DNA from: Parcubacteria group bacterium
GTDB taxonomy: Bacteria; Patescibacteriota; Minisyncoccia; Phycocordibacterales; UBA2135
Assembly (NCBI GenBank): GCA_016180525.1
Contig: JACPBB010000002.1
Location: 48,824 to 112,823, forward strand
DNA length: 64,000 nt
Direction: 5' to 3'
This document shows, piece by piece, positions 2-27,483 of the stretch. The translations under genes were made by a program, and so were the position numbers. Under the pieces are notes generated by a model. It did no database searches and was not told the origin of the DNA. It saw nothing but the letters and a program-made list of their open reading frames with translations. Numbering within the stretch: position 1 is the first letter of the stretch; each line of letters starts with the position of its first letter.

Positions 2-116
2 CCGTGGTTTTTCGTTGATAATTCGGTCATTTTTGAGGACGATGCTCAAGACTACGGAGCGGGCCCCGGATTCGGCATGAAATTCATCTGGGAATTGCTA
101 CGACAATATGTATAAA
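2..116 (+). CDS. 3' end of an unidentified gene (partial, open frame to TAA at 114-116)
   Basis: Open frame running off the window start. It ends ...GFGMKFIWELLRQYV* just before a hairpin terminator. Confidence 0.3.
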
Positions 117-125
117 AACAATAAA

Positions 126-149
126 GCGGCGCAATGCGCCGCTTTTTTT
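126..149. terminator. Bidirectional rho-independent terminator (GCGGCGCAATGCGCCGC hairpin + T7)
   Basis: Perfect GC-rich palindrome followed by a T-run. It lies between convergent gene ends. Confidence 0.6.
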
Positions 150-155
150 AATTTT

Positions 156-422
156 TTATTCCCGAAAGACAAGCGGGCGGACTAAAGTAACCCTACCCTC
201 ATCGTCGGTGCAAAATTTTACTAAAACATCAGCCTGTAGTCCTTTTTTACTAAATTGAGTGAGTTCGCGGAGACGCTCCCCGCTATAACTCTCAATCTTA
301 TCAAGCGTAAACGGATATTCTCTCCCATTTTTCCCCTCTTCAATAATAAAGACAATATTAGACTGAATCCTCGCCACCTTTCCCAAACGGAATCTCATGT
401 TTGGCTTCCCTCTCCGGTACAA
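156..422 (-). CDS. hypothetical small protein (88 aa)
   Basis: ORF of plausible length with a terminator downstream of its stop. No recognisable family. Confidence 0.45.
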   Translation of the reverse strand: MYRRGKPNMRFRLGKVARIQSNIVFIIEEGKNGREYPFTLDKIESYSGERLRELTQFSKKGLQADVLVKFCTDDEGRVTLVRPLVFRE

Positions 423-460
423 TCTTTAATTATCTTAACAGGAAAATAAGAAGTTGGCTA

Positions 461-1516
461 TTAATTAATTTCAATGTCTATGTGTTTCACTGAAGGAAAT
501 GCCGCCATTATTTTTTTCTCCGCTTCGTCAATTTTTCTGCCGACAAGACGCGGAACACGGTTTGTCTGATACGCAACGAATCTCTTAAACTCTTCAAAAT
601 CTTTTTTGATAACTTTAAATTCACTCTCCATATCATCCTGCTCCATAATTTCTTCAATAAGAGCAGCACCGTTGAATTCAATCTCACACTTTACGCGATA
701 CTTCCCGATATCAAGAACTTCTGATTTAAAATCAATTATTTTTTCAATGTAAGGCTCCGTAAGGAGCATCGTGGAAATTTCCTCCGCGATATCTTCGGGA
801 ATACTTTTACCCATAAGAAACTCGCGATTTTTTTTGATAAGAAAAATGGCGATAACCGCTAAAATAATTCCGACAATAACAGAGCCAACAGCATCCCAGA
901 TAAAACTTCCAGTGAGATATGAGATGAGAACAGCAGAGAGAGCAACAATAACTCCGAGCACCGCGGCCGCATCCTCATAGACGACCGCAATGGTGACAGG
1001 GTCCCCATGCTGTAGCGCTTTATAGAAAGTATCTTTTTTATGGTGCGAACGCAGTTCTTGGACAGCCTTGTATAACGTAAAAGATTCAATGAGAAGCGAG
1101 ATAGAGAGAATCGCAAAAATAGTGCCGCTGATCTCCGCTTCATGATGCTCAATAATTGTCATAATTCCGTGATAGATGGTAACTCCCGCACCCAAGAAAA
1201 AAATACCGCAGGCGGATATAAGCGCCCAAAGAAAGCGCTCACTTCCGTACCCGTATACATAGTCCTCGTCTGCCGCGCGAGTTGAACGGCGAAGCCCTAT
1301 AAGAAGAAGCCCTTGGTTCATGGTGTCTGCCAAGCTATGCACCGCCTCACTAAAAAGAGAGCTTGAGCCGGAGAGAAAATACCCAATAAACTTAAGAATG
1401 GCGATGCAAAAATTGCCGCTCAAGGCAAAAATGACCGATGTTGTACCCGGAGTTGTGCCGCGAGATTTCATAGATATGCATAAGTATAGCACTCTCGGAG
1501 ACGCCGCATCAGACAA
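461..1516 (-). CDS. cation diffusion facilitator (CDF) family metal efflux transporter
   Basis: Six TM-like hydrophobic segments and an HSLADTMNQ-type motif. The C-terminal cytoplasmic domain is typical of CzcD/FieF. Confidence 0.85.
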   Translation of the reverse strand: MSDAASPRVLYLCISMKSRGTTPGTTSVIFALSGNFCIAILKFIGYFLSGSSSLFSEAVHSLADTMNQGLLLIGLRRSTRAADEDYVYGYGSERFLWALISACGIFFLGAGVTIYHGIMTIIEHHEAEISGTIFAILSISLLIESFTLYKAVQELRSHHKKDTFYKALQHGDPVTIAVVYEDAAAVLGVIVALSAVLISYLTGSFIWDAVGSVIVGIILAVIAIFLIKKNREFLMGKSIPEDIAEEISTMLLTEPYIEKIIDFKSEVLDIGKYRVKCEIEFNGAALIEEIMEQDDMESEFKVIKKDFEEFKRFVAYQTNRVPRLVGRKIDEAEKKIMAAFPSVKHIDIEIN

Positions 1517-1875
1517 TTTTTATGATGAGTTCAGTGAATAATCTTTAATATTATCGCAGAATTCCATGGGCGTAAGCCCGTGGAGAAGTTAAGCAATGCG
1601 AGCGGGGCGAAGCATTGCGACCCAAAACCCTCCATTCTAGAAATAAATCTCCGCGCCTGTAAGGGCGTAGAGATTTATAATAAGGACGTATTGATTTATC
1701 TAACGCCAACAAAAAATTTTTTCATTATTTAAAAAGAAATATATTTGGGGCGCCCCACCTACGCCAAGGCTTTGACGGGCAAGCGTCGTAGAGGATGCTT
1801 GCCCATCCGTAGCTTTAGCGAAGGAGGGTTAGAACTGTAATACACCAAACGAGTAAGAATTTTTATATTCCTCTC

Positions 1876-2742
1876 TTATCTATTTGAAATAACAATTAAA
1901 TAATCTTTGAAGTCCAAATAATTGCTCCTTTGGTATTTTTTGATTTTATTAAGAAACGTTTTCGCTTCTGAGTCTTTGGGGAATGAATCTGTGTTATGAA
2001 TGAAACGGTAGAAAATTTTCAGGTCAAAGGTTTTTGTTGTGTTTAAGATATCTCCAACAAACATTCTCATTTTGAGCTTTTTAGCTTTAACTTTAAGATT
2101 TAATTTTTTATAGAAACTCATTATATACTCTGCATAATTAAATGTTGGATATATTTGATGAAGCATTATCTGATAGTGAGCACTTTTTTCTGGAAGGGTT
2201 AAAATAAGAAGTTTGCCTTTTGGTTTCAAAAAAGTGACCAATTTTTTAAGTTGTCGGTCGTAATCCTTTTGATTAAGCGCCCAGTAATAGTTTGTATGTG
2301 ACGTAAAAATTGTGTCATATTTCTTTTGGGGATTAAACGACGCGAGAGAGCGCGGAAATAGTTCTCCAACATTATTTTCGGGCTCAAGAAATGCTTCCGC
2401 TGAAGCAAGGGCATTTTCATTCGGTTCCAGCAAGTCACAGGTGTAATTCCCTTTTATCCTGTCAAGAACTTGTTTTGTGGTATGCCCTTCGCCGCACCCC
2501 ACGTCAAGGATTTGTTTCCTTCCCTTAACCTTAACAGAATCAACCTCTTTAACTATTTCAGCAATAATATTAATCCAGTCCTCATTGAGAGCACGGATAT
2601 ACATGTTTTCATATACATCAGAGAATTCCTTCTCTCCCCAAAAATGCCATTTTGCCATGAATTTTATTATATCAGTTCCAGCGACCCGATGAGGTAGTTT
2701 TTTAGACCCTACAAAATAAAACTCTTTTAGATGGGTGCTCAC
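1876..2742 (-). CDS. class I SAM-dependent methyltransferase (start probably the internal ATG at 2658)
   Basis: LDVGCGEGHTT motif I. The longest ORF overlaps tRNA-His, so the internal Met (MAKWHFW) is the more likely start. Confidence 0.75.
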   Translation of the reverse strand: MSTHLKEFYFVGSKKLPHRVAGTDIIKFMAKWHFWGEKEFSDVYENMYIRALNEDWINIIAEIVKEVDSVKVKGRKQILDVGCGEGHTTKQVLDRIKGNYTCDLLEPNENALASAEAFLEPENNVGELFPRSLASFNPQKKYDTIFTSHTNYYWALNQKDYDRQLKKLVTFLKPKGKLLILTLPEKSAHYQIMLHQIYPTFNYAEYIMSFYKKLNLKVKAKKLKMRMFVGDILNTTKTFDLKIFYRFIHNTDSFPKDSEAKTFLNKIKKYQRSNYLDFKDYLIVISNR

Positions 2743-2806
2743 TGAGAATTGAACTCAGATTAAAGGCTCCACAGGCCTCTGTGTTAACCGTTACACCATG
2801 AGCACC
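2734..2806 (-). tRNA. tRNA-His (anticodon GTG) with encoded G-1
   Basis: Cloverleaf read by eye with a 7-bp acceptor stem and an extra 5' G pairing the discriminator C. Anticodon loop is CTGTGGA; T-loop is TTCAATT. Confidence 0.85.
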
Positions 2807-3134
2807 ATAAAACTTTTGCTCTGCAAAAGTAAATTTCTAAAAACTAAACACTAACCGCTGAATCCTATTTATAATGCGGATTTTTCTCTCTAATTCCTCT
2901 CTTGAAGTTAACAAATCACGCGAGCGCAAACAAGAGCGATGAATCCCGTTCCAAATCGCAGGCGCGTCCCCAAAAATCTCACGCTTTCCGCTTTTTCGTG
3001 TCAAAAAATTTGGTAGTGCCTCAACCCCCTTTCCTGTATATAACATGCAGAAGGATTATAATACGCGAACTTGCTGTTGTAAAGATATGTTTTCTAAGAT
3101 TAATTGATTATTATGTACTAAGGCGTTTAGAAGC

Positions 3135-5183
3135 ATGGAGTTTGAAATGACCCCGATCGATGTTGATAAGCTCATTAAAAATGATATTGAAAGAAAGAAA
3201 AAGCGTCACAGCAAGCATCAGCATATCACATTTAAAGAGTACCTTGAATTAGTGAAGCAGAACCCGCGTATTGCCCAAAACGCATTCGCACGAGTGCATC
3301 AAATGATAATGCATGCCGGCATTGAAGAAATTCCGGAACATGAACGTTGGCTCGGTGTTGATCGGCGCCTTCTATTCTTTGCCCAAAAACTATTTGGCAT
3401 TGATTCTTGCGTTGTACAACTCACCGACCACATGGAAGCAGGCGCAAACCGTGCCTCAACGGGCAAACAAATCCCCCTTTTGGTTGGTCCGCCGGCGAGC
3501 GGAAAATCAAGCATTGTAAAAATGCTCAAACAAGGTTTGGAGCACTATGATCTCTTGCCCATTTTTGCAATCTCTGGATGTCCGAAGCACGAAGAGCCCC
3601 TACATCTACTTCCGAGAAATACGCGGGAAGAGATTGAAAAAGACCTTGGAGTACGTATTACTGGAGACCTGTGCCATGTATGTCGGCACCGCTTAAAAAC
3701 TGAATTTAAATCTGATGACGGCACTATTCGTTGGTGGGAATTCCCCGTTGAGACATTTACATTTTCTATTCAAGGAGCTCGCGGTATTACTTCATTTGAA
3801 CCTTCCAATGAAAAGGCGTCCGATATAACGGCTTTGACCGGAAGAGAAAATGTCGGTGTTACTTCAAATCCAAATCGTGGATACAAAGACCCTCACGCAT
3901 TTGAACTCTCTGGAGAAATTCCAAAGGCAGAGCGTGGAATTTGCGAAGGAAGAGAGCTTACTTCAAGCGACCCGGAAGTGCTTAATGTGTTCTTCAGCGT
4001 TGCCGAGGAACAAGAGTTGAAAATTACCGGTTCTAACTTCCCTCACCTGTCAGTGGATGCTGTCATTATCGGGCATACGAATCTAACGCCATATAAAAAC
4101 TTTGCGGGGGACAAGAAACACGAGGGACTGCATCAACGATTTTATGTGATTCCGTGTCCATATCCGCTTCGTATTCAGGACGAAGTCCGTGTATATAGAA
4201 AGCTCATTGAACAAGAAAGTGATTTTGTCCGTCTGAAGAAATGCCACATTGCCCCCGGCTCGCTTGAGCTCGCGGCAACGTTTGCTGTCATTACACGATA
4301 TGTAGAGTCTGACAAAGTCGGACCAATCACAAAGGCAAAAATCTACAATAACGAAAAGGCGCTTACAGAACTCGAAAACGCAGAAAGCAGGCCTCGTGAT
4401 ATTCAAGAATTGCTTGATGAAGGCCAGGGACATGCGGATATCGCAAAACGCGAAGGAATGTTCGGCGCAAGTGCGAGAGACGTGCTCGCGGCGCTCAACA
4501 ACGCACTCGTGCGCGAATCGACGCGCGGCAAGTGCTTAACCCCGCTTACCGCAATTCGTGCTATGCGCGATATATTCCAAGGTGAACACCGCATGGGATA
4601 CACTCCTGAGCAAATACAGAAATTCTTGGAGCTACTCTCTGCCGCAGAGGGAGAGAGTGTCATGACAGAGTACAAAGAGTTTGTCGTGACGGTCGTGAAC
4701 AAAGCGTATCTTAGGGCATACGGATCTCTTGCGGAAGAATTGTTTAGAAAGTACATTGCGGAAGTTGATCATTATCGCGACACAAAAAGAAAATATGTTC
4801 GCGGAAAACAAGTTGAGATTAAACGAGATATCGTAACGAACAAACCCAAGGAGCCTGATATCAAATTTCTCCGCTCTATTGAACAGCACATTCCGCTCAC
4901 GGAAGCAGAAGCAGAAGTGTTTCGCGGAGAAGTTCTTGAGTGTAAGGCAAGCATGAAGGACTTTTCTTACTCAACATATCCCCCCCTTGCGCGCGCGGTT
5001 GAGAAAAAGCTTCTCGCAGACAGTAAGTCCAGCCTGACGCTTGTGCTCGCGAGCGACAAACCGAAGGGAACCGAGGAAAAGAAACGAGTTGAAAACCTGT
5101 TCGCCTCTCTCGGCGAAAGTGGATTCTGTGAAGTGTGCGCTAAAGAAGTTGTTGAAAAAGCACAAGAGTTTTTGAGAGAATAA
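3135..5183 (+). CDS. prkA: PrkA family serine protein kinase (YeaG-like)
   Basis: Walker A motif LVGPPASGKSS. Length and overall similarity fit PrkA/YeaG. It is followed by yeaH and spoVR, as in the conserved trio. Confidence 0.9.
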   Translation: MEFEMTPIDVDKLIKNDIERKKKRHSKHQHITFKEYLELVKQNPRIAQNAFARVHQMIMHAGIEEIPEHERWLGVDRRLLFFAQKLFGIDSCVVQLTDHMEAGANRASTGKQIPLLVGPPASGKSSIVKMLKQGLEHYDLLPIFAISGCPKHEEPLHLLPRNTREEIEKDLGVRITGDLCHVCRHRLKTEFKSDDGTIRWWEFPVETFTFSIQGARGITSFEPSNEKASDITALTGRENVGVTSNPNRGYKDPHAFELSGEIPKAERGICEGRELTSSDPEVLNVFFSVAEEQELKITGSNFPHLSVDAVIIGHTNLTPYKNFAGDKKHEGLHQRFYVIPCPYPLRIQDEVRVYRKLIEQESDFVRLKKCHIAPGSLELAATFAVITRYVESDKVGPITKAKIYNNEKALTELENAESRPRDIQELLDEGQGHADIAKREGMFGASARDVLAALNNALVRESTRGKCLTPLTAIRAMRDIFQGEHRMGYTPEQIQKFLELLSAAEGESVMTEYKEFVVTVVNKAYLRAYGSLAEELFRKYIAEVDHYRDTKRKYVRGKQVEIKRDIVTNKPKEPDIKFLRSIEQHIPLTEAEAEVFRGEVLECKASMKDFSYSTYPPLARAVEKKLLADSKSSLTLVLASDKPKGTEEKKRVENLFASLGESGFCEVCAKEVVEKAQEFLRE

Positions 5184-5192
5184 CATACCCCA

Positions 5193-5225
5193 AAGCCCCC
5201 TCTTTTATGAGGTGGGCTTTTTTGC
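5193..5225 (+). terminator. intra-operon hairpin + T-run (attenuator-like) between prkA and yeaH
   Basis: AAGCCCCCTC...GGTGGGCTT stem followed by TTTTTTG. Confidence 0.4.
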
Positions 5226-5267
5226 TACACTCTAACATAGAGTATCCTTGAAAGACGGAGAATATAG

Positions 5268-5804
5268 ATGCCAATTATTGTCTCAGAACATATTCAAGAA
5301 CGCGGCAAGGGAGATGCGCGACGACATCGCGACAAGCAGCGAGAGGCTATAAAGAAAAATCTTCCTGAAATACTTTCGGAAGAATCAATTATCACTGGAA
5401 GGCCGGGGAAAATTATAAAAGTCCCCATTAAGAGTCTTGATATACCGCATTTTAAACACGGGCGAGGCAAAGACGAAAATGACGCCGGAGTTGGTCAAGG
5501 TAAGGGAAAGCCAGGGGATGTTATTGGTCGTCGGCCAGGAAAAGGAACAAAACCTGGAGGACCGGGAACTGAACCAGGGGTAGACTATCTTGAGGCAGAA
5601 TTTACCATTGAAGAATTGACGGAATTATTCCTTGAAGATATGGGTCTCCCCCGACTTGAGAAAAAAAATGTCCGTGAAATTGAAGTAGAGCTTGGATTTA
5701 AAGTAAGAGGAACCCAGCGCACAGGGCCGCATGTCCTTTTAAATCGCAAAAAAAACAGCGCAAGAGGGAATGAAGCGGTTTTGGAGCTTTCTCCAAGCAC
5801 TTAA
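5268..5804 (+). CDS. yeaH: YeaH/YhbH (DUF444) family protein, N-terminal part (frame 0; interrupted)
   Basis: N-terminal DUF444 region (lysine/arginine-rich, GRPGKGTKPGGPG). The frame terminates at 5804 while the C-terminal part continues in another frame. Confidence 0.6.
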   Translation: MPIIVSEHIQERGKGDARRHRDKQREAIKKNLPEILSEESIITGRPGKIIKVPIKSLDIPHFKHGRGKDENDAGVGQGKGKPGDVIGRRPGKGTKPGGPGTEPGVDYLEAEFTIEELTELFLEDMGLPRLEKKNVREIEVELGFKVRGTQRTGPHVLLNRKKNSARGNEAVLELSPST

Positions 5805-17467: not shown

Positions 17468-18196
17468 TTAGAATTCCTCAAATTCCGGAATAAGCGTCAC
17501 TACAGCGCTATCTGAAAGCTCGCCTCCTTCGTTTTGGCACGTTAGTATAAATGTGCTTTGCACAGTAATCGGGCCAGAGGGCGCAGAGCCCGAAATGCCG
17601 GTTTGTGAAAATCCATTAGGGCCGGTCACCGTACAGCTGTCAACGTTTGTCGCGGACCATGTAACTGTTGACTGATTGCCAGACTTTACCGAAACCGGAC
17701 TTGCAGAAATGCCAACATCAGGGTTAAGCACCGTTACTCCAACTGATGATTGAAGCGACGACGGAGAGTATGTGCCAGGATTATAAAAGCATACAACAGT
17801 GTACGTCGTGTCTGTTGTGGGAGAAACAACAACCGAACCAGAAATGGCTCCCCCCGTTGAAAAATTAAGACCATCGCAACTCGTCGCTCCGGTGGCATTC
17901 CATTCAATTGTTACGCTACCCCCTTGGTTTATGGTGATAGCCCCCCCGCTTTCACCAGTTTCATTATTTTCTCCAAATAAATTAAGTGCGGGCGGAGCAC
18001 ATTCTCCCGGGGTATGCTCGTATGAGGGACACGACGCGGGAATCGCAAACCCGCCGCTTATCCCTTTAGGAGAAAGAGATGTAACGCCAACCTCCACAGA
18101 TTTTTGCGGCAACATAGTAAGGCCGGCGCCCCAAAATATCCACCCGATAAGAAGTAGCGCGAGCACAGCGACAATAAGTTGAGGAATGTTTTTCAT
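17468..18196 (-). CDS. secreted Gly/Ser/Thr-rich surface protein (hypothetical)
   Basis: N-terminal signal/TM segment (MKNIPQLIVAVLALLLIGWIF), then a low-complexity G/S/T-rich region. Confidence 0.55.
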   Translation of the reverse strand: MKNIPQLIVAVLALLLIGWIFWGAGLTMLPQKSVEVGVTSLSPKGISGGFAIPASCPSYEHTPGECAPPALNLFGENNETGESGGAITINQGGSVTIEWNATGATSCDGLNFSTGGAISGSVVVSPTTDTTYTVVCFYNPGTYSPSSLQSSVGVTVLNPDVGISASPVSVKSGNQSTVTWSATNVDSCTVTGPNGFSQTGISGSAPSGPITVQSTFILTCQNEGGELSDSAVVTLIPEFEEF

Positions 18197-18235
18197 GCTA
18201 ATAATTATATCAAATAGAGCCAAAAACAAAAACAA

Positions 18236-19006
18236 TTATTTGCCGGCGGTTAAATTAATATTAAATCGTATGGCTTCTTTCATTTCATAAACCCCTTGTC
18301 CCGCAACGTTTGGATCGTTTCCGGGGTATGCCCTATGCCAATCTGATTCTGTAAGAGTTTCCGCCCAAAAAAGCGCCTTTTGAAAGTAAATCTTGGCTTT
18401 TTCATTATTGCCTAGGTTCATATGCGCAAGCGCTGTCATATTTAAAAGCCACGGGTTATTCGGAAAATGCGCGAGTCCGCCCTCCGCAGTTTGCCGTGTT
18501 TTTTCATAGTTCCCCTGTTGAAAATAAATCCACGCCAGGTCGTTGTACACAGCCCAGTTATTTCTATCCCATTCAAAAAATTTCAAAAAATTTTTCTCCG
18601 CTTTTTCATATTCTTTCGTATATCCATAAATGAGCCCGCGGATATAATATGAAGACATAAGCGAGTCGCCATGCAGCTCAATTTGTGTATTTATCTTCTC
18701 GAGTGCCCCATCAAAATCCCCGCGCAAAAAATCAATCCGCGCAAGCTGGTGCCACGCATCAGACACGTTCGGATCGACTCCGAGCGCTTTATTAAAATAT
18801 TCTGCCGCCCTGTCTAAGTCATACTTCCCGCTTCCGCCAACATTGAAATAATAATTTCCCTTTTGCACGAATACGTTCGCGTCATTCCCCCGCAAAGAAA
18901 ACATATCAAAAACAACTGCTCCCGTTTTTGTTCGTGTCAACACAAGTACTACAAGCACAAAGATTACGAAAATAAAGATAAGTTTTTTATTCAGCGAGAT
19001 TTGCAT
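18236..19006 (-). CDS. TPR repeat-containing membrane-anchored protein
   Basis: N-terminal TM segment plus multiple TPR-like repeats (AEYFNKAL, WHQLARIDF, etc.). Confidence 0.7.
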   Translation of the reverse strand: MQISLNKKLIFIFVIFVLVVLVLTRTKTGAVVFDMFSLRGNDANVFVQKGNYYFNVGGSGKYDLDRAAEYFNKALGVDPNVSDAWHQLARIDFLRGDFDGALEKINTQIELHGDSLMSSYYIRGLIYGYTKEYEKAEKNFLKFFEWDRNNWAVYNDLAWIYFQQGNYEKTRQTAEGGLAHFPNNPWLLNMTALAHMNLGNNEKAKIYFQKALFWAETLTESDWHRAYPGNDPNVAGQGVYEMKEAIRFNINLTAGK

Positions 19007-19813: not shown

Positions 19814-20560
19814 TTAATATCCTCCGACAATAATACTCTCTCCTGAAACGGCGGTTGCCAGATCCGAAGCTAGAAACAAACAAGCGTTCGCAATATCAAC
19901 AGATGTTGGTAATTTTTTTAAAAATGTCTGGTCTGCGATAGAAGAATATTTTTTTGAAAAATTTTCATCATTCTCTTTGTTGACAAAGCCCGGAATAACC
20001 GCGTTTATTCTAATACCGTCCTCGCCGAGTTCTTTTGCAAGTCCTAGCGTCAAAGACAAAAGAGCTCCTTTTGAAACAATATAATGAATCCCCGTCTGAG
20101 AAAAAAGTGGCCTCAAGGCGGCAATTGAGGAGATGTTTATTATAGATGGATTTAATCTTTGTTTTAAAAGCGGAGTCATTTTTTTTATTAAATGAAACAC
20201 TCCAAAAAAATTCGTTCGTAGAGCGTCTTCCCATATTTCATCACTTATATTCTCAAGAGAGTTCCATTGTCGAAGCGCGGCGTTATTTATGAGAATATCA
20301 AGGTGCCCAAAACGATTCTTAATTTGAGAAACAATCTCTTCAACTGCTCCTGCGTCTCCGATATCAGCAGATATGCCAATTACTGCATACCCCTTTCCTT
20401 CAAAAATATCTACCACTTTCTGAACAGTATTTTTCACCCTTCCATTAATAATTATTTTAGCCCCCTGTTCAGCAAATGCTTCGGCAATAACATACCCAAT
20501 TCCACGTGTAGATCCGGTTACCAAAACAACTCTCTCTGTAAAATTTAAATATTGCTTCAT
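19814..20560 (-). CDS. SDR family oxidoreductase (3-oxoacyl-ACP reductase-like)
   Basis: VLVTGSTRGIGYVIA Rossmann motif and a YxxxK-type catalytic region. Confidence 0.85.
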   Translation of the reverse strand: MKQYLNFTERVVLVTGSTRGIGYVIAEAFAEQGAKIIINGRVKNTVQKVVDIFEGKGYAVIGISADIGDAGAVEEIVSQIKNRFGHLDILINNAALRQWNSLENISDEIWEDALRTNFFGVFHLIKKMTPLLKQRLNPSIINISSIAALRPLFSQTGIHYIVSKGALLSLTLGLAKELGEDGIRINAVIPGFVNKENDENFSKKYSSIADQTFLKKLPTSVDIANACLFLASDLATAVSGESIIVGGY

Positions 20561-20604: not shown

Positions 20605-22251
20605 CTAATTAGTAGCGGAAATCGCAACAATGTCTGCTAAAAAATCATTGTTGTTAAGAAAACCACTAATAATACCTGTAAGAGAATCCTTTTTTGTAAA
20701 ACAAAAATAATAATAATTTTTATTCCCCGCAGAAAATGTAAAGCTGACACAATTGCCCTTTATAACAAAATTGTCAAGTGATCCATCTTCTGCACCAATA
20801 CTTGATTCAAAAAATCGTCCCGATAACGCTTCTTTGCCGGATGAATGGGAAAAGCTCATTTTAAATGTTCCTGAACTAAATCTCCCCGGACCTTCAGTTC
20901 GTTCCCATGACACGTTCCATGGAGAATTTTGTACAAGAATTTCCGCAAAAGACTTTGAGCCGCTGGGGGTATTTGTTTCTAATTTTAACAAAATCTCAGA
21001 AAGACGGAAGCCACGAGTTGCTCTATTGTTGGCTGAATTTATTTCAAGTGCATTTTTGTACGCAGGTTGTGCTAACTCAAATTCGCCTAGTCTCATATAA
21101 ATATCTCCAAGAACACGATACGGCGCGCTAATTTTGTCCAGCCTTTCGGGGGTATTGTATCCACGAACTTCATATCCTGGAAAGTCTTTAAACGGCTTGT
21201 CTAAATCATGATTAAACTCAACCGCAGAAAGAGCATATTTTTCCGCTTCTTCCATTTTCCCAAGAGCAAGTTTTGCTTCTGCCAAAACATGCAACGCAAA
21301 TACTTTAAAGTATGGGGGCATAAATTCTAAAAATTTTTCATCATTCACCACTCGTTCTAGATGACGCTCTTCTTCTATATAATTATTTTTTGAAAGCGCC
21401 CTCATCCCAATGGTGTAGTTTTTAAACATTTCTTCGGTTTCTTTCATCACGATTCCGCGTGGAGGATATGGTGTCTCTTCTAAATTTTTTATTTTATTTA
21501 ATGCCATTGCTAAATTTTTAGGCTGAATAATAAGATATTGATTCTGGCCACTTGGTGACATTATATTTTGCAATCTTTGAAAGTCTTTAAAACTTAATTC
21601 ATAATTATTTCCAAGCCAATAACTCTGAAATATCAATTTTCCATTGGGTTCGTCAATGCCAATAAGTACTGTCGCGGGATAATAATGAAATGTTGAATTA
21701 AAAGGTTGGCTCTCCGTTAATGGCAGGAGCAAAAAAAGTGGAGTTCTCACTTCTTCATTAATATATTTTTTTACTTCGTTAAGGGTAAGTCGTTCTTTTT
21801 TTACCACGTAATATCCAGTCTCCTGAACATATTTCTCCACACCATCAGTTGAGAAATCAAATGAACCTGACCTTACCAACCTCTCAGTAATTTCCGCGGG
21901 GGTTATCTTTCCCGGATTCCAATATTCTAACACTGAGGCCACCGCCCCGCTTACATCACCTACAATAAAACTATTTTTCCCAATATGATTATGGACACCA
22001 ACATACGGAACTCCTGGAATTGTGTATCTAAACGTTCCTGCGGGTATACGAACAGATTCTGTACCACCAATAACTTCTCTAATTTCTCCTGGCTTTATTA
22101 TTGACTCAAGCGAGGAGGTTTTTAAAGAAAAAAAGTACCAGGTAAAACCTCCCGCAACAAGCAGTAAAAGAACGCTTACCCAAGCAACAATAGTTACTGG
22201 AGTTGCTAATTTATTTTGATCAAAGGCATTCTTTTGATTATTGTCTTCCAT
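20605..22251 (-). CDS. membrane-anchored hypothetical protein with N-terminal EYWN-motif domain and C-terminal TPR-like region
   Basis: N-terminal TM segment. Shares a VxEYWNxG motif with the two downstream paralogs. TPR-like helices are present. Confidence 0.55.
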   Translation of the reverse strand: MEDNNQKNAFDQNKLATPVTIVAWVSVLLLLVAGGFTWYFFSLKTSSLESIIKPGEIREVIGGTESVRIPAGTFRYTIPGVPYVGVHNHIGKNSFIVGDVSGAVASVLEYWNPGKITPAEITERLVRSGSFDFSTDGVEKYVQETGYYVVKKERLTLNEVKKYINEEVRTPLFLLLPLTESQPFNSTFHYYPATVLIGIDEPNGKLIFQSYWLGNNYELSFKDFQRLQNIMSPSGQNQYLIIQPKNLAMALNKIKNLEETPYPPRGIVMKETEEMFKNYTIGMRALSKNNYIEEERHLERVVNDEKFLEFMPPYFKVFALHVLAEAKLALGKMEEAEKYALSAVEFNHDLDKPFKDFPGYEVRGYNTPERLDKISAPYRVLGDIYMRLGEFELAQPAYKNALEINSANNRATRGFRLSEILLKLETNTPSGSKSFAEILVQNSPWNVSWERTEGPGRFSSGTFKMSFSHSSGKEALSGRFFESSIGAEDGSLDNFVIKGNCVSFTFSAGNKNYYYFCFTKKDSLTGIISGFLNNNDFLADIVAISATN

Positions 22252-22308: not shown

Positions 22309-23208
22309 TTATGCCGTATTGCCAAACGAAATAAGTTTATTTGCAAAAGACAACATTGCCTCTCTTGCTCCTTTCTTATTTATCGAAACATGGGGCATAA
22401 CTCCTAAGATTTTATGAATGTCAAATTCTTTTTTCTTGTTAAAAATTTCTCCGGCAGTCCAATCTCTGTAATGTGCTCGAAGCAGTAAGTATGCTTCTCT
22501 GCTTTTATCTTCTACTTGCCCTGTAATTTCTATAGATTCGCTGGGCTCAAGCAAAAGGCCGTCACTGTCTTTCATTTTTTTCCATATGTTTTGTGTATTT
22601 CCGATGGCGTGCGCCTTAGATGTGTTTTTTGTTTTTATGTTCTGATGATTAACCCCCTCCGTCTTCTCAATGGCATTTTCTTCAAATACATGAATGTCTT
22701 TAAATTTTGAATCAACTATTAATTCTGTGTTTTTAGGATACACGACCCGAAGTAGGGAAAGATGGTCAATAAAACTTTCTTCGGGCTCAATTTCTTTTAT
22801 CTGAGCAATAAAGTGTCCATCCCTCAGTTGTACATTATTCTGAATTCGATATAGATCCGGCGTAATCTTTCCGCTTTCATACATTTGCATTCCTTCCTTT
22901 TTATTAGTAAACAACGTATTAGGTTTCCCAAACAAAAAATCATTTTCAAATATAAATGTTTTCCCGTTCCACGTAGATATAAAAGGGGTACTGAAACCGC
23001 CGTCATGATCTGCACAACCGCTGTCACAGCCACCGTCGCCGCCACCGTCGGCTCCATCACCGCTAGAGTCAAGTATAAAAAAGGGGGAAAGAAAAACGCC
23101 CATACTCATCTCAAAATACTGAGAGGCAATGAGCATCGCTAGTAAAGAAACTATCTTTATTAGAAATGATTTTTCGATTACGAAACATTTTGTAATTGAA
23201 GTTTGCAT
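22309..23208 (-). CDS. membrane-anchored hypothetical protein with Asp/Gly/Cys-rich linker (paralog of 23227-24018)
   Basis: TM segment, then SSGDGADGGGDGGCDSGCADHDGG, then an STWNGKTF domain. Confidence 0.55.
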   Translation of the reverse strand: MQTSITKCFVIEKSFLIKIVSLLAMLIASQYFEMSMGVFLSPFFILDSSGDGADGGGDGGCDSGCADHDGGFSTPFISTWNGKTFIFENDFLFGKPNTLFTNKKEGMQMYESGKITPDLYRIQNNVQLRDGHFIAQIKEIEPEESFIDHLSLLRVVYPKNTELIVDSKFKDIHVFEENAIEKTEGVNHQNIKTKNTSKAHAIGNTQNIWKKMKDSDGLLLEPSESIEITGQVEDKSREAYLLLRAHYRDWTAGEIFNKKKEFDIHKILGVMPHVSINKKGAREAMLSFANKLISFGNTA

Positions 23209-23226
23209 ATATATTTTAAAGATATT

Positions 23227-24018
23227 TTATGACAAAACCGGATTCTTGCCCTTATTTTGATATGTATTAAGCGTGTATAATTTTTTTAAAAATGATTTTG
23301 AGTCCAAATCAAGCCGTCCTGCCCAATCCCCCGCTTCTTTTTGGGCCTCTTCGCTTGCCGCTGTGTACACGCCCCCTGCTTGAAGCATAAAAGCATATTG
23401 TTCGTTAGAGGAAATATTCGGCTTCACTACTTTAAAAGAAACGTCAACGACATCGCCTGGGATTGTGTGGAGATATTCACCAGAGCGTGGAGAATTAAGA
23501 ATCCTTGCATAATCTTTTTCTTCTCTTTTATGATATGCTCTCGCAACTGAAAATTGTTCTGTCTCGTAAGAAAGATTTTTCTTTGGAGAAATGAGTCCGG
23601 CAAAATATACCTTATGTTTTTTTGTCGCAGTTACCCGCAATTGCACATTTCCCCTTTTTTGTATTGCTTCTTTGGGAATAGTAATTGTATTCAATGTCGG
23701 CTGATAATACCGTGGTGAATAAATATCAAGTGGCACAAAAGAAATACCGTTCCAATATTCAATTATTAAAGAGCATCCTCCGCCAGACCCGCCACCGCAT
23801 CCAGGTGGGGGGGGCGGGGGTGGAGTATCGGCGTGTGCCAAGGGAGTACCCTTTGTAGAACCAAATAAAATATTGTGCGCCTTTTGAGAAAGCGTGAGTG
23901 TTTTGCCCTCATCGCCTTGACTCCCAGAGATTGTTTTAAGTACAAAAAGAATAAACAATCCAAATAAAAGCGCTATTCCTTTAAATATTTTTTTTATTTT
24001 ATTTTGCGTGTAAACCAT
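23227..24018 (-). CDS. membrane-anchored hypothetical protein with Pro7 and GCGGGSGGGCS segment (paralog of 22309-23208)
   Basis: Signal anchor, then PPPPPPPGCGGGSGGGCSLIIEYWNG, then a conserved domain. Confidence 0.6.
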   Translation of the reverse strand: MVYTQNKIKKIFKGIALLFGLFILFVLKTISGSQGDEGKTLTLSQKAHNILFGSTKGTPLAHADTPPPPPPPGCGGGSGGGCSLIIEYWNGISFVPLDIYSPRYYQPTLNTITIPKEAIQKRGNVQLRVTATKKHKVYFAGLISPKKNLSYETEQFSVARAYHKREEKDYARILNSPRSGEYLHTIPGDVVDVSFKVVKPNISSNEQYAFMLQAGGVYTAASEEAQKEAGDWAGRLDLDSKSFLKKLYTLNTYQNKGKNPVLS

Positions 24019-24175
24019 AATGCCTACGAGTAATTATGAAAATTACAAAAATTTATAAAAATAACTATAAAAAGCGCGAATACAACATTATATCATAAAT
24101 ACGACAGAGCCTACGAGCAATTATGAAAATGATACAAAATTGGTGTATTTATAGTATATTATACATACTATCCTT

Positions 24176-25666
24176 ATGAAAGAGTTTGATGTGGAAGTTA
24201 CCACAAACGTTGTGGAATATTTAAAACAAAGACATTTTCGTCCATATAAGCGAAGCATTTTAAAGTTATGCCTAAAAATGCTTGAAAAATACACGGGAGA
24301 GAATATTACTATACCCGTCTCTCGAGAGCTTCAATTACTTGGAGGAACATCGGTTTATCTTTGGAATTCAATAGAGACGCTCTACGCACTGCAGTCTTTG
24401 GGTATCGTTTCGCATTTCTCAAAAAATATGCACTACCCAGACGAGCCGCGTCTTCACGGATATAGCGCGGCATATTCAACCTCAGCAAATCGTTCACTAA
24501 GTAGAGCAAGCGGGGTTGATTTCTTTGACAAAAAAAAGGCTTTCTTCCGAATGCTTGGCGAATCAGTTGAGCGGCATTTGTGGTCTTGCACAGATTTTTT
24601 TTCAAGAAATCAAATAATGAAACCTTATAAAGAAATTAAAAATAAATCATTGAATATATTTTTACTTGCCGGATTCACGAAAGAACAAAAAAAACAATAT
24701 AGAGAGCTCCAGCTTACCGAAAATACACCACTTGCGTGGATTCCCGCCACATCACTTGTAAGTGAAAAGAAAATATGGTGTCCAACACAACTATTGAGCG
24801 TCCGTTATTTTAGAGAAAATGTGAGAACGCCAAAGAGACCCGCGAAACCAGAGCCAATGCTGCGGTGGTGTGTTACCACAGGTCTTGCAACGGGAAAAAC
24901 ACTAGAGGAAGCAATCGTTGCTGGGATATTGGAGGTAATAGAAAGAGACGCATTTATGATTACCTTTTTAAATAAACTCTCTCCTCCACTCATAGATTTG
25001 GAATATGTCGCAAGCCAAGACAAAGACATAGATACTATTTTGAAAAAATTTAAACGATACAATCTTGAAGTATATATGATCGCGCTTCCCACTGATTTTC
25101 CTGTACACGTTGTGTTGAGCCTCGTTATTGACCCATCGGGACGAGGCCCGGCTACAAGTGTGGGAGCAAGTGCTGATTTTGATTTAAAAAGATGCATCCT
25201 TGACGCATTATCTGAATCTCTCTCAGTAAGATACAATATAAAAAATAAATACAAGGATCCGATTGATTTGCAACATATTGGAAGAGAAGAGAGAATATTA
25301 TATTGGGCAAAAGAAGAAAACGTGCCTGGTCTTGAATTTTTAACAAAAGGGAAAAAAAATAAAGTTGAGTTAAATAAACAACATGTTTCGCAAAACTCAG
25401 AGATTCGTCATGACAAAAAACAACTTGATACACTTAGAGTAGAATTTAAAAAACAAAATCAAGAAGTATGTTTTGTAGAGCTTTCCTCAAAAGAAACCAG
25501 AAAACTTGGCTTTAGAACGGTTTTTGTGGTTGCTCCGGAAATGCAGCCAATGCACCTTGATGAATCAATCCCCTATTTTGGTGGCAAGCGCCTCAAGGAA
25601 GTACCTGAGAAACTGGGATACAAACCAGCGAAAGAATTAAATAAGGAGCCACATCCCTTTCCTTAA
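24176..25666 (+). CDS. YcaO domain cyclodehydratase (TOMM D-protein-like) with about 100-aa N-terminal extension and C-terminal PxPxP
   Basis: FFRMLGESVERH and GLATGKTLEEAIVAGILEVIERDAF YcaO signatures. The C-terminus ends EPHPFP (PxPxP motif). Confidence 0.85.
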   Translation: MKEFDVEVTTNVVEYLKQRHFRPYKRSILKLCLKMLEKYTGENITIPVSRELQLLGGTSVYLWNSIETLYALQSLGIVSHFSKNMHYPDEPRLHGYSAAYSTSANRSLSRASGVDFFDKKKAFFRMLGESVERHLWSCTDFFSRNQIMKPYKEIKNKSLNIFLLAGFTKEQKKQYRELQLTENTPLAWIPATSLVSEKKIWCPTQLLSVRYFRENVRTPKRPAKPEPMLRWCVTTGLATGKTLEEAIVAGILEVIERDAFMITFLNKLSPPLIDLEYVASQDKDIDTILKKFKRYNLEVYMIALPTDFPVHVVLSLVIDPSGRGPATSVGASADFDLKRCILDALSESLSVRYNIKNKYKDPIDLQHIGREERILYWAKEENVPGLEFLTKGKKNKVELNKQHVSQNSEIRHDKKQLDTLRVEFKKQNQEVCFVELSSKETRKLGFRTVFVVAPEMQPMHLDESIPYFGGKRLKEVPEKLGYKPAKELNKEPHPFP

Positions 25667-25668
25667 TC

Positions 25669-26415
25669 ATGCTTTCTAAATTATTTCACAAAAAAATCAC
25701 AAATGAACGACCATATACACCAAGAGACCCAAAAGATTGGCCGATTTCATGGCGTACCGTGTATTTTAAAGAATACCCAAGATTTGATAGAGTAATGCTG
25801 CCAATAAATTTTTTAGAGCTGAAAAATTTAAAAGATGTTTTAGAAAAAAGACATTCTACCAGAACGTTTGACATAAAAAAAGAAATAACTCTACAGGAAC
25901 TCTCAACAATGCTTTATTATTCAGCCGGCATAAAAGGGACGCCTGGCAAATATAGAGACAAGCCGCAAATGGAAAAAAATAAATCAAGGCGATTCTATCC
26001 GTCCGGCGGAGAGCGATATCCGCTTGAAGTGTACGTCGCAATAAAGCGAATTTCCGAGATAAACTCTGGAATATACCACTATAACTTGCCCAATCACTCT
26101 CTTGAACAATTGTCAGATAAAGAATGTTTAAGCGAGTTTTATGAAGCACTTGGCGAACCATGGGCAAAAGACGCTGCGGTAGTTTTTATTATAACTGCTG
26201 TCTGGGATAGAAATTTTATAAAATATCAAGACTTCGGTTACAACATAATTCTTACCGAGACGGGACATATGGCTCAAAATCTAATTTTACTTTCAGAGTC
26301 TTTGGATCTACACTATTGTCCGTTTATTGGATTTGATAATAAAAAAATAAATAAAATTTTAGACATTGATGAGGAAAATGAGTCTTCTTTATATATGATT
26401 GCAGGAGGAAAATAG
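25669..26415 (+). CDS. SagB-type dehydrogenase (nitroreductase superfamily, TOMM B-protein-like)
   Basis: RHSTRTF and PSGGERYPLEVY motifs. Its start lies 3 nt after the ycaO stop. Confidence 0.8.
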   Translation: MLSKLFHKKITNERPYTPRDPKDWPISWRTVYFKEYPRFDRVMLPINFLELKNLKDVLEKRHSTRTFDIKKEITLQELSTMLYYSAGIKGTPGKYRDKPQMEKNKSRRFYPSGGERYPLEVYVAIKRISEINSGIYHYNLPNHSLEQLSDKECLSEFYEALGEPWAKDAAVVFIITAVWDRNFIKYQDFGYNIILTETGHMAQNLILLSESLDLHYCPFIGFDNKKINKILDIDEENESSLYMIAGGK

Positions 26416-26457: not shown

Positions 26458-27483
26458 ATGTTTTTTATAAAAAACCTTTCACAAAACAACACAGAGCATG
26501 AAACCGTATTACAGGATCAGCTCTTGGCAACGCACTACTTAATTACTCTCACACACACAACACTTGAGCGTCTGGGCCTTTTTGATGTCTTGAGAAAAAA
26601 AACAGAGCCAGCAGCAATTGATGAGCTATCAAAAATAATAAAAGTAAGAACTGACATTTTAGAGGCTTGTATTAATTTCTTGTGGTCTACGACCAATTAT
26701 CTAGAAAAAAACGGGCAAAAAATTATTTTGAAAAATAATCCGCCAAAATGGTTTTGGATAGCAACGTATAAACCTGTATTTGACAACTTAGAAAGTTTAT
26801 TAAAAGGAACAAAAAAATATGGAAATGATGTTGTTCGTGATGGATATTATTTACAAAAAATGTCTATTACAATCAATAATCCGGTTGAAAATTATATAGT
26901 CCAACAGCTTCAAGAAATTAAAGAAAAAAGTATCCTTGTCGATTTGGGCTGCGGCCCAGGGACACTTCTTTCACGGGTAAGCGCTGCAAATCCATTAATA
27001 GAGGGGCTTGGCATAGATGTTGACCCAATCATAACCGACATTGCTCAAAAAAACGTAATGCGTTCGCGTCGTCCAATAAAAATTATCACGGCAGACGTGA
27101 CAAAAATACATTTCTGGAAAAAACACATTCCATCAAATGTAAATCTTATATTCTCAGCAAATTCCATACTCCATGAACTCTTACGAGACGGAGAAGAAAG
27201 GTTCATCTCTTTTTTAAAAACACTCAAGGGCGCGTTTCCGGGCTCTCGATTTTTTGTAACAGAAATTAACGCGCTTTCGCCTCAAGAAATAAAAAATATG
27301 CGGAGCAACGATTACAAATTTTTTATGGCAATGTTTATGTTCACCCATCCGCTTACTGAACAGGGATTGCCACGATCCAAAAAAGAATGGCTTTCTTTTT
27401 TTAAAAAAAGCCAGTGGTCCGTCATGCGAACAGAACAACCTAAAAATAATGACGCGCGAATTATCTATGACTGTCTCTTATGA
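26458..27483 (+). CDS. class I SAM-dependent methyltransferase (O-MT-like with N-terminal dimerisation region)
   Basis: ILVDLGCGPGTLLS motif I. Confidence 0.75.
   Translation: MFFIKNLSQNNTEHETVLQDQLLATHYLITLTHTTLERLGLFDVLRKKTEPAAIDELSKIIKVRTDILEACINFLWSTTNYLEKNGQKIILKNNPPKWFWIATYKPVFDNLESLLKGTKKYGNDVVRDGYYLQKMSITINNPVENYIVQQLQEIKEKSILVDLGCGPGTLLSRVSAANPLIEGLGIDVDPIITDIAQKNVMRSRRPIKIITADVTKIHFWKKHIPSNVNLIFSANSILHELLRDGEERFISFLKTLKGAFPGSRFFVTEINALSPQEIKNMRSNDYKFFMAMFMFTHPLTEQGLPRSKKEWLSFFKKSQWSVMRTEQPKNNDARIIYDCLL

Follow-up and report, generated by a model that had tools for sequence, protein, structure and literature searches.

The window analysed here is a 64,000-nucleotide stretch of DNA from a Parcubacteria group bacterium (GenBank assembly GCA_016180525.1, contig JACPBB010000002.1, positions 48,824 to 112,823 of the forward strand). 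At positions 22,309 to 24,018 it carries two neighbouring genes for membrane-anchored proteins, which we call P1 and P2, each with a Gly-rich tract containing Cys and Ser, and next to them, on the opposite strand, genes for a YcaO cyclodehydratase and a SagB-family dehydrogenase. Our analysis has shown that genes of the P1/P2 family (P1P2 below) lie directly beside YcaO and SagB genes in about 33 non-redundant loci, and that the tracts linked to YcaO contain more Cys than those of YcaO-less loci. Sequence comparisons suggest that the tracts may be substrates of YcaO and SagB, in a variant of thiazole/oxazole-modified microcin (TOMM) or linear azol(in)e-containing peptide (LAP) systems with anchored or protein-embedded cores; we give this reading a probability of about 0.5.

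The sequences of the two proteins are identical to the NCBI entries HYT93_02150 and HYT93_02145 (Parcubacteria group, candidate phyla radiation (CPR)/Patescibacteria). The two genes, as delimited in the list of open reading frames (ORFs), and the parts of their products are as follows.

23227-24018, minus strand: P2 gene, 263 aa; basic N-terminal tail, hydrophobic anchor, spacer, AHADTP, Pro7-Gly/Cys/Ser tract and predicted beta-sandwich.
23938-23979, minus strand: hydrophobic anchor helix of P2, about aa 14-27 (IALLFGLFILFVL), with a K-rich tail before it; read from the sequence.
23821-23838, minus strand: A-H-A-D-T-P motif with which the leader-like stretch of P2 ends (A-x-A-D-[TVA]-P is the consensus in the family, conserved in three alignments).
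23770-23823, minus strand: P2 tract, PPPPPPPGCGGGSGGGCS, from the translation; candidate azole-forming core (Cys74, Ser78, Cys82, Ser83).
23230-23772, minus strand: predicted beta-sandwich domain of P2, aa 83-263.
22309-23208, minus strand: P1 gene, 299 aa; anchor ending in PFFIL, Gly/Asp/Cys/Ser tract and predicted beta-sandwich.
23071-23166, minus strand: P1 anchor, about aa 15-46, a hydrophobic helix and a short VFLSPFFIL segment; from the sequence and the family alignment.
22996-23067, minus strand: P1 tract, SSGDGADGGGDGGCDSGCADHDGG, from the translation; candidate core (Cys61, Ser63, Cys65).
22444-22995, minus strand: predicted beta-sandwich domain of P1 (STPFISTWNG ... ENDFLFGKP ... EIEPEESFID ... 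YRDW), from invariant alignment columns.

Both tracts translate exactly as quoted in the original prediction, and the divergently adjacent YcaO/SagB operon that it described is present, separated from P2 by a spacer of 157 bp. The tracts had also been placed right after the signal anchor; this holds for P1, whereas in P2 about 35 residues, including the conserved A-H-A-D-T-P, intervene. Both Cys residues of P2 (C74 and C82) and two of the three in P1 (C61 and C65) are inside the tracts, and the folded domains of both proteins contain none. Among homologs the P1 tract is hypervariable, ranging from no tether at all to a tether with 10 Cys. Tract length varies widely among stand-alone P2 homologs as well, despite a kept boundary Cys, which is found at or beside the junction of tract and domain in 8/8 stand-alone tethered P2 homologs (C-S-L in seven, C-G-S-L in one). 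A tandem-repeat scan of the tract DNA found nothing inside either tract.

Two other functions were considered for the segments around the anchors and rejected. After the anchor many relatives read ...PL[IFLM]xLC..., where P1 of the window reads FILDSS and has no Cys; a lipoprotein lipobox ([LVI][ASTVI][GAS]C) does not account for this "...LC", as Leu occupies position -1 and the first Cys is unconserved. The AxAD-P motif was considered as a generic export signal; within the window and the loci then collected it is confined to the P1/P2 family and to the free-standing peptides described below.

The description of P1 and P2 as paralogs had to be abandoned. BLASTP of P1 against P2 gave E 0.36, with a 10-residue match only, and hhalign of the two domain families gave a probability of 1.6%; a very remote kinship is conceivable, both domains being modelled as beta-sandwiches. 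Twenty six homologs of P1 were identified, most of them P1-P2 fusions of about 500 aa with the order anchor, tether 1, P1 domain, second anchor, A-x-A-D-[TV]-P, tether 2, P2 domain; P2 had nine homologs at 51-65% identity. Since they are fused in one protein in most relatives, P1 and P2 are different domains of one unit, and the split, order-swapped P2/P1 form is found only in the window organism and a few close relatives. When 1.84 billion representative proteins were searched with a profile, the family came to 989 members at E <= 1e-3 and to 401 at the stricter E <= 1e-10, mostly of 470-550 aa.

Neither the P1 nor the P2 domain has a match in Pfam or NCBIfam. The AlphaFold2 model of a fused homolog (P0016), built from 50 aligned sequences (mean predicted local distance difference test (pLDDT) 79, predicted template modelling score 0.71), features two confident all-beta sandwiches, two long hydrophobic helices and disordered tethers (pLDDT about 30). 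Residues 77-261, the P1 domain, are all-beta with high pLDDT in this model, and helix 281-307 is the counterpart of the P2 anchor helix. The models suggest carbohydrate-binding-module-like beta-sandwiches, typical of extracellular modules; resemblance to the galactose-binding-like jelly rolls CBM32, CBM35/36, BcsB and discoidin comes with a sequence identity of only 7-15%, and Foldseek returned nothing at E < 0.01.

The genomic context was compared in 80 loci gathered from genomes, metagenomes and exact-protein look-ups; 74 of them were mapped with TBLASTN using the cluster proteins of the window and the last six were read from gene and Pfam tables. The approximately 33 non-redundant loci with YcaO and SagB directly beside the P1P2 gene represent at least five gene arrangements: co-directional, X419 (ATP-grasp-like)-methyltransferase-YcaO-SagB-(short-chain dehydrogenase)-P1P2; divergent, in the window, L001, L004, L027, L040, L042, L054 and L067; YcaO-P1P2-...-SagB, in L052; with the enzymes downstream of P1P2, in L032 and L076; and SagB(-)/YcaO(+)/P1P2, in L063. 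Adjacency kept through so many rearrangements points to a functional link of P1P2 with YcaO and SagB.

The Cys content of the tethers follows the presence of YcaO. The two tethers together contain on average 2.6 Cys in YcaO-linked loci (n=30) and 0.56 in YcaO-less loci (n=9, each with a flank of at least 5 kb on either side; Mann-Whitney p = 2e-4, uncorrected for phylogeny). If Cys residues in tethers or in free-standing peptides are counted, at least two are present in 25 of 33 loci with YcaO and in 3 of 12 loci without it (Fisher p = 0.003, also uncorrected for phylogeny). The neighbour-joining tree of the P1 domain contains at least three separate YcaO-less groups. Within one subfamily, the Sungbacteria-like one, YcaO-linked tethers read GVQCGCSCACL, GVQCGCGCECL or GTQCPGCLCL, and YcaO-less ones GTQGGCCL, GAGQAGCSF or GAQSGCSF. 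Some tethers resemble classical LAP cores, such as LCACDCDCSCDGGSGDCSGTCGCGNGG in L013 and SCSSCTSCTSCTSCSSCTSCTSC in P0133.

Six further proteins were picked by tether Cys content and their contigs were then looked up. Five of the six fit the association, one of them by an extended rule, and one does not:

P0040 (L077): 5 tether Cys; YcaO/SagB directly upstream; fits.
P0045 (L078): 5 tether Cys; YcaO/SagB directly upstream; fits.
P0047 (L079): 0-1 tether Cys; no YcaO/SagB; fits.
P0031 (L080): 2 tether Cys, not in a Gly context; no YcaO/SagB; fits.
P0048 (L076): 0 tether Cys; YcaO/SagB 3 kb downstream and a free-standing Cys-rich peptide; fits the extended rule.
P0033 (L075): 4 Cys in tether 2; no YcaO/SagB within 4.8 kb upstream or 10 kb downstream; a miss.

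Three loci harbor small ORFs of 92-130 aa beside YcaO, each encoding a Cys/Gly-rich tail behind an anchor and xAD[TV]P:

L027:1059-1382, plus strand: free-standing peptide, first copy.
L027:2819-3097, plus strand: free-standing peptide, second copy.
L067:6339-6647, plus strand: free-standing peptide.
L076:16190-16582, plus strand: free-standing peptide of 130 aa, divergent from YcaO, in which an anchor and VVHADTP precede the tail TSCGGGGGGDGSACGGG...SCMCRDASCPSCGSNDSSCGASCGSSNCSSQCSSPGMF.

The C-terminus is GDELY in the two L027 copies and PGMF in the L067 and L076 peptides. All of them align with residues 1-83 of P2 from the window (..AxADxPPPP[GS]CGG..), and judged by this alignment P2 is in effect such a peptide with a predicted beta-sandwich domain appended. 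L027 and L067 are the YcaO-containing members of a clade whose P1P2 tethers are Cys-poor in the neighbour-joining tree; L076 features the same pattern, and its P1P2 protein is not in that tree. A Cys-rich filter and a six-frame regular-expression search, covering every locus as well as the window, located such peptides in L027, L067 and L076 alone; the 64 kb of the window has none, and its only Cys/Ser/Thr-rich tracts behind a leader are those within P1 and P2. An all-vs-all BLAST of about 1,150 small ORFs identified tRNA and S20 artefacts only and no conserved precursor. The public gene call at the L076 peptide is in the wrong frame, with an 86-aa Val/Ala-rich product, which suggests that such peptide genes are probably under-annotated. 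In L027 (positions 29-5488) each peptide follows a paralogous protein of 339 or 438 aa, and next come a polytopic membrane protein of 408 aa and a beta-propeller-like protein of 385 aa, then SagB and YcaO; compared with that of the window, this biosynthetic cluster seems more complete.

By their sequences, the two enzymes belong to azole-forming types:

24176-25666, plus strand: YcaO cyclodehydratase of the SagD/TOMM type (PF02624, TIGR03604), with an N-terminal extension of about 120 aa and a C-terminal PHPFP.
25669-26415, plus strand: SagB-family FMN dehydrogenase (TIGR03605, PF00881), predicted to convert azolines to azoles.

The YcaO protein matches PF02624 with E 4.6e-48 and the SagD family TIGR03604 with E 2e-64 and 217.9 bits, just under the cutoff of 219.25 (the L007 ortholog scores 263.7); the match to TIGR03266 is weak (66 bits, cutoff 365). 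Among solved structures, it is closest to those of the cyanobactin heterocyclases MusD, TruD and LynD, the match covering the YcaO domain only; the N-terminal extension has no match in family or structure searches. A C-terminal PxPxP is a feature of azoline-forming YcaOs, and the protein of the window ends in ...KEPHPFP, its L027 and L076 orthologs in PHPFA and PHPFD. The SagB gene begins 3 nt past the YcaO stop, and its product scores 147.8 bits against TIGR03605 (cutoff 78.4). In the closest relative, HYT27, a GIY-YIG endonuclease gene lies between YcaO and SagB (L004:7383-7640, L005:8083-8340), which suggests a mobile intruder in the cassette.

The analysis shows how the proteins are built, which types of enzyme are encoded beside them, that the genes are adjacent, that Cys content correlates with YcaO and that free-standing peptides are homologous; the modification itself, its timing relative to export and its purpose we infer. 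P1 and P2 are two halves, split here, of a Patescibacteria-specific membrane-anchored surface protein; in each half a low-complexity tether joins an N-terminal anchor to a predicted carbohydrate-binding-module-like beta-sandwich. In lineages with a TOMM-type YcaO and SagB beside the gene, the tether has acquired Gly-flanked Cys and Ser. The anchor together with the conserved motif at its end (A-x-A-D-[TV]-P in P2, P-F-F-x-L in P1) would serve as the leader; YcaO would cyclodehydrate Cys and Ser of the tether to azolines with ATP, and SagB would oxidise these to thiazoles and oxazoles. Both reactions would have to take place in the cytoplasm, ahead of insertion into the membrane or in the course of it. 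At its base the surface domain would then have an azole segment that is rigid, resistant to proteases and possibly able to bind metal. That the enzymes install azoles in the membrane-proximal tether of full-length CPR surface proteins (260-550 aa), as well as in anchored mini-proteins with the same leader, is a tentative proposal, with the odds slightly against it.

A number of observations weigh against the tracts being substrates. About 12 loci keep a P1P2 protein with no YcaO within 5-10 kb; as they have neither enzyme, the family does not need YcaO. Many loci share a wider synteny (MurC-like ligase, RuvA, S20, TPR, RuvX, PilM) and hence are not independent observations, and the association statistics ignore phylogeny. 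P0033 combines four Cys with the lack of a YcaO neighbour and, vice versa, P1 of L001 and the protein of L040 have Cys-free tethers despite the YcaO link; the tracts generally vary greatly in length and composition, as linkers do. No E1-like (SagC/McbB, Ocin-ThiF) or RiPP (ribosomally made and post-translationally modified peptide) recognition element (RRE) partner was found among the cluster proteins of the window by Pfam and NCBIfam searches. Finally, family-wide the first anchor has 2.1 K/R on its N-side and 1.0 on its C-side, which is also acidic, so that, judged by these charges and by the extracellular type of the domain folds, it should be oriented N-in with the tether outside. The charge bias of the second anchor of fused proteins is ambiguous as to whether the two domains share one side, and no twin-arginine motif was seen. 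With the tether outside and the ATP- and FMN-dependent YcaO and SagB in the cytoplasm, modification would have to precede export.

The co-occurrence check proposed in the original prediction thus finds P1P2 usually (about 33 loci) but not always (about 12 without) beside YcaO/SagB. Relatives spread widely without a YcaO neighbour, which would have spoken against the link, are encountered in a minority of loci only, and the tethers of this minority are Cys-poor, which fits the substrate idea. The proposal of heterocyclised in-protein substrates, favoured by the neighbourhood, the Cys correlation and the peptide homologs and opposed by the outside topology and the missing E1/RRE, is retained here as the likeliest reading of the sequences.

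The same observations could be explained if the tracts were ordinary flexible Gly/Pro/Asp tethers, with the Cys engaged extracellularly in a small disulfide loop or in binding a metal, YcaO and SagB serving another peptide or role, and the adjacency being inherited synteny. The occurrence of the family without YcaO, the syntenic wider neighbourhood and the expected topology are all consistent with this explanation, as are the disorder of the tethers in the AlphaFold2 model and their composition in other members: P0014 has no tether, those of P0011 and P0013 are Gly-only, and those of other clades are S/Y/Q-rich or D/T-rich. The spacings CxxxC in P1 and Cx7C in P2, with no Cys in the domains, are compatible with disulfide loops. 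However, Cys counts are often odd (1, 3 or 5), which disulfides alone do not fit; Cys is enriched where YcaO is present, also within subfamilies; the adjacency outlasts at least five rearrangements; Cys-rich free-standing peptides with the same leader lie beside YcaO where the tethers are without Cys; and the scans of the window and the loci found no alternative precursor. We consider plain tethers a less likely explanation.

Still less probable is that P1 and P2 are a non-substrate part of the YcaO system, such as a surface receptor, an anchor or an export or immunity component, with a separate precursor elsewhere in the genome of the window organism: this would agree with the separate Cys-rich peptides that accompany YcaO in L027, L067 and L076, where the P1P2 tethers are Cys-poor, with the PD40/TolB-like beta-propeller and TPR envelope proteins that always accompany P1P2, and with the binding role suggested by the carbohydrate-binding-module-like folds, but in the window and most loci with YcaO there is no free-standing peptide and the Cys-rich tract lies within P1P2 behind the same leader motif, and P1P2, persisting where YcaO is absent, is not a dedicated accessory.

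If the tracts are substrates, one of their close known counterparts is microcin B17 (McbA with McbBCD), which shares the Gly-rich core, the Gly-flanked Cys and Ser and the YcaO and FMN dehydrogenase genes beside the substrate gene. McbA, in contrast, is soluble, has 69 aa and bears a hydrophilic leader, whereas the tracts of the window follow a membrane anchor and precede a folded domain of about 180 aa; and of the Mcb proteins only the YcaO (McbD-like) and the dehydrogenase (McbC-like) have equivalents, McbB, E, F and G having none in the cluster by Pfam and NCBIfam. The label "microcin-B17-like" reflects a likeness in composition only. In another known system YcaO-TfuA thioamidates McrA, a full-length protein substrate, at one Gly residue, a reaction that requires TfuA and a donor of sulfur; the likeness is that YcaO acts on a whole protein rather than a leader-core peptide. 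The YcaO of the window has SagB rather than TfuA as its partner, which points to azole formation.

Bufferins are RiPP precursors with a Sec signal whose Cys are made heterocyclic by cytoplasmic enzymes before export (PMC11626156). These and other proteins modified by multinuclear non-heme iron-dependent oxidases (MNIO; PMC11626156, PMC11252979) resemble P1 and P2 in that they have Sec-type signals and that substrates can be small proteins; they differ in the enzymes (MNIO/DUF692 instead of YcaO/SagB) and the product (5-thiooxazole, whereas thiazole is expected here), and there is no sequence relationship. Bufferins demonstrate that Cys modification before export is possible for precursors with a Sec signal, with a different enzyme family.

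Graspetide leaders have the motif Phhx(1,2)h, with an ATP-grasp ligase encoded nearby (PMC8939145). The P1 anchor ends in SPFFIL (LPLF or IPLI in relatives), a P-F-F-x-L recalling this motif, and the ATP-grasp-like X419, with weak PreATP-grasp and BesA-like matches, heads the co-directional X419-methyltransferase-YcaO-SagB-P1P2 operons (L007:4111-5370, L009:2560-3858 and equivalents). This hints at a second, possibly graspetide-like modification in X419-bearing lineages; no X419 homolog is present in the window.

To our knowledge, there is no experimentally shown precedent for YcaO/SagB azoles in the tethers of whole membrane proteins. Confirmation of our reading would extend azole formation from short secreted peptides to such tethers, yield azole-containing proteins rather than diffusible peptides and indicate a structural or metal-binding modification of the envelope in ultra-small episymbionts. 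It could also bring to light a novel kind of leader, in which AxAD-P comes after a signal-anchor, and would bear on how minimal-genome organisms construct or toughen the surface of their cells. Sharrar et al. 2020 (PMC7298704), in the portions of the survey drawn on here, report 110 LAP clusters from 93 CPR genomes, Parcubacteria accounting for 51, with YcaO and mostly a nitroreductase, the latter beside YcaO in 89 of the 110 clusters, and one example precursor of 84 aa from a Microgenomates genome. The cluster of the window is most likely of this kind. The same portions mention neither anchored two-domain proteins nor anchored Cys-rich peptides as candidate substrates, and our literature search found no paper linking YcaO with anchored two-domain or Cys-rich mini-proteins in Patescibacteria. 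The substrates of these clusters, common in CPR, are essentially unassigned, and anchored Cys/Gly tracts, if they are substrates, would fill this gap.

The remaining genes of the cluster are arranged on both sides of P1 and P2. On the minus strand, P2, P1, a TPR protein and a short-chain dehydrogenase form a row of four genes with gaps of 18-58 nt, the P1 start being 18 nt beyond the P2 end in the ORF list. The plus-strand order is YcaO, SagB, S-adenosylmethionine (SAM) methyltransferase, DegT aminotransferase, a 1082-aa phosphoribosyltransferase (PRTase)/pyrroloquinoline quinone (PQQ)-propeller/AMMECR1 fusion and an Asp/Asn beta-hydroxylase.

20605-22251, minus strand: anchored 548-aa TPR protein (Pfam TPR) with a weak papain-like (C70/C39-like) N-terminal domain (Peptidase_C70 E 0.008, below cutoff).
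19814-20560, minus strand: short-chain dehydrogenase (PF13561, E 1.2e-52).
26458-27483, plus strand: SAM methyltransferase (Pfam methyltransferase domains), weakly similar to the RiPP methyltransferase ApyS.
24022-24054 and 24109-24141, no strand: 33-nt direct repeat in the divergent spacer (24019-24175), copies 85% identical and 87 nt apart.

The gene-order map shows the methyltransferase kept beside YcaO in many related loci, and the short-chain dehydrogenase between SagB and the P1P2 gene in the co-directional loci L007, L009, L031 and L041. The 548-aa TPR protein holds the same position in L001 and L004 and occupies the slot of the PD40/TolB-like partner that follows fused P1P2 genes elsewhere; by eye, it has Ser at the place of the catalytic Cys of C39-type peptidases (GDVSGAVASVLEYW). 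One copy of the 33-nt repeat stops 4 nt short of the P2 start codon, and possible readings of the repeat are a shared operator and the duplication of a leader region; in a promoter and terminator scan, sites were no more frequent than in shuffled sequence.

The 1082-aa fusion (28605-31853, plus strand) is composed of an orotate-PRTase-like domain, a PQQ-type beta-propeller, AMMECR1 and an alpha/alpha-toroid-like C-terminus. It corresponds to two genes in relatives (554 aa and 644 aa in L007) and is found near the YcaO cassette in many loci. At 17468-19006 on the minus strand, a 256-aa TPR protein and a 255-aa secreted repeat protein share 62-64% identity with the proteins encoded just after the P1P2/PD40-like pair in L007, which indicates that the syntenic block reaches past the P1/P2-YcaO cluster.

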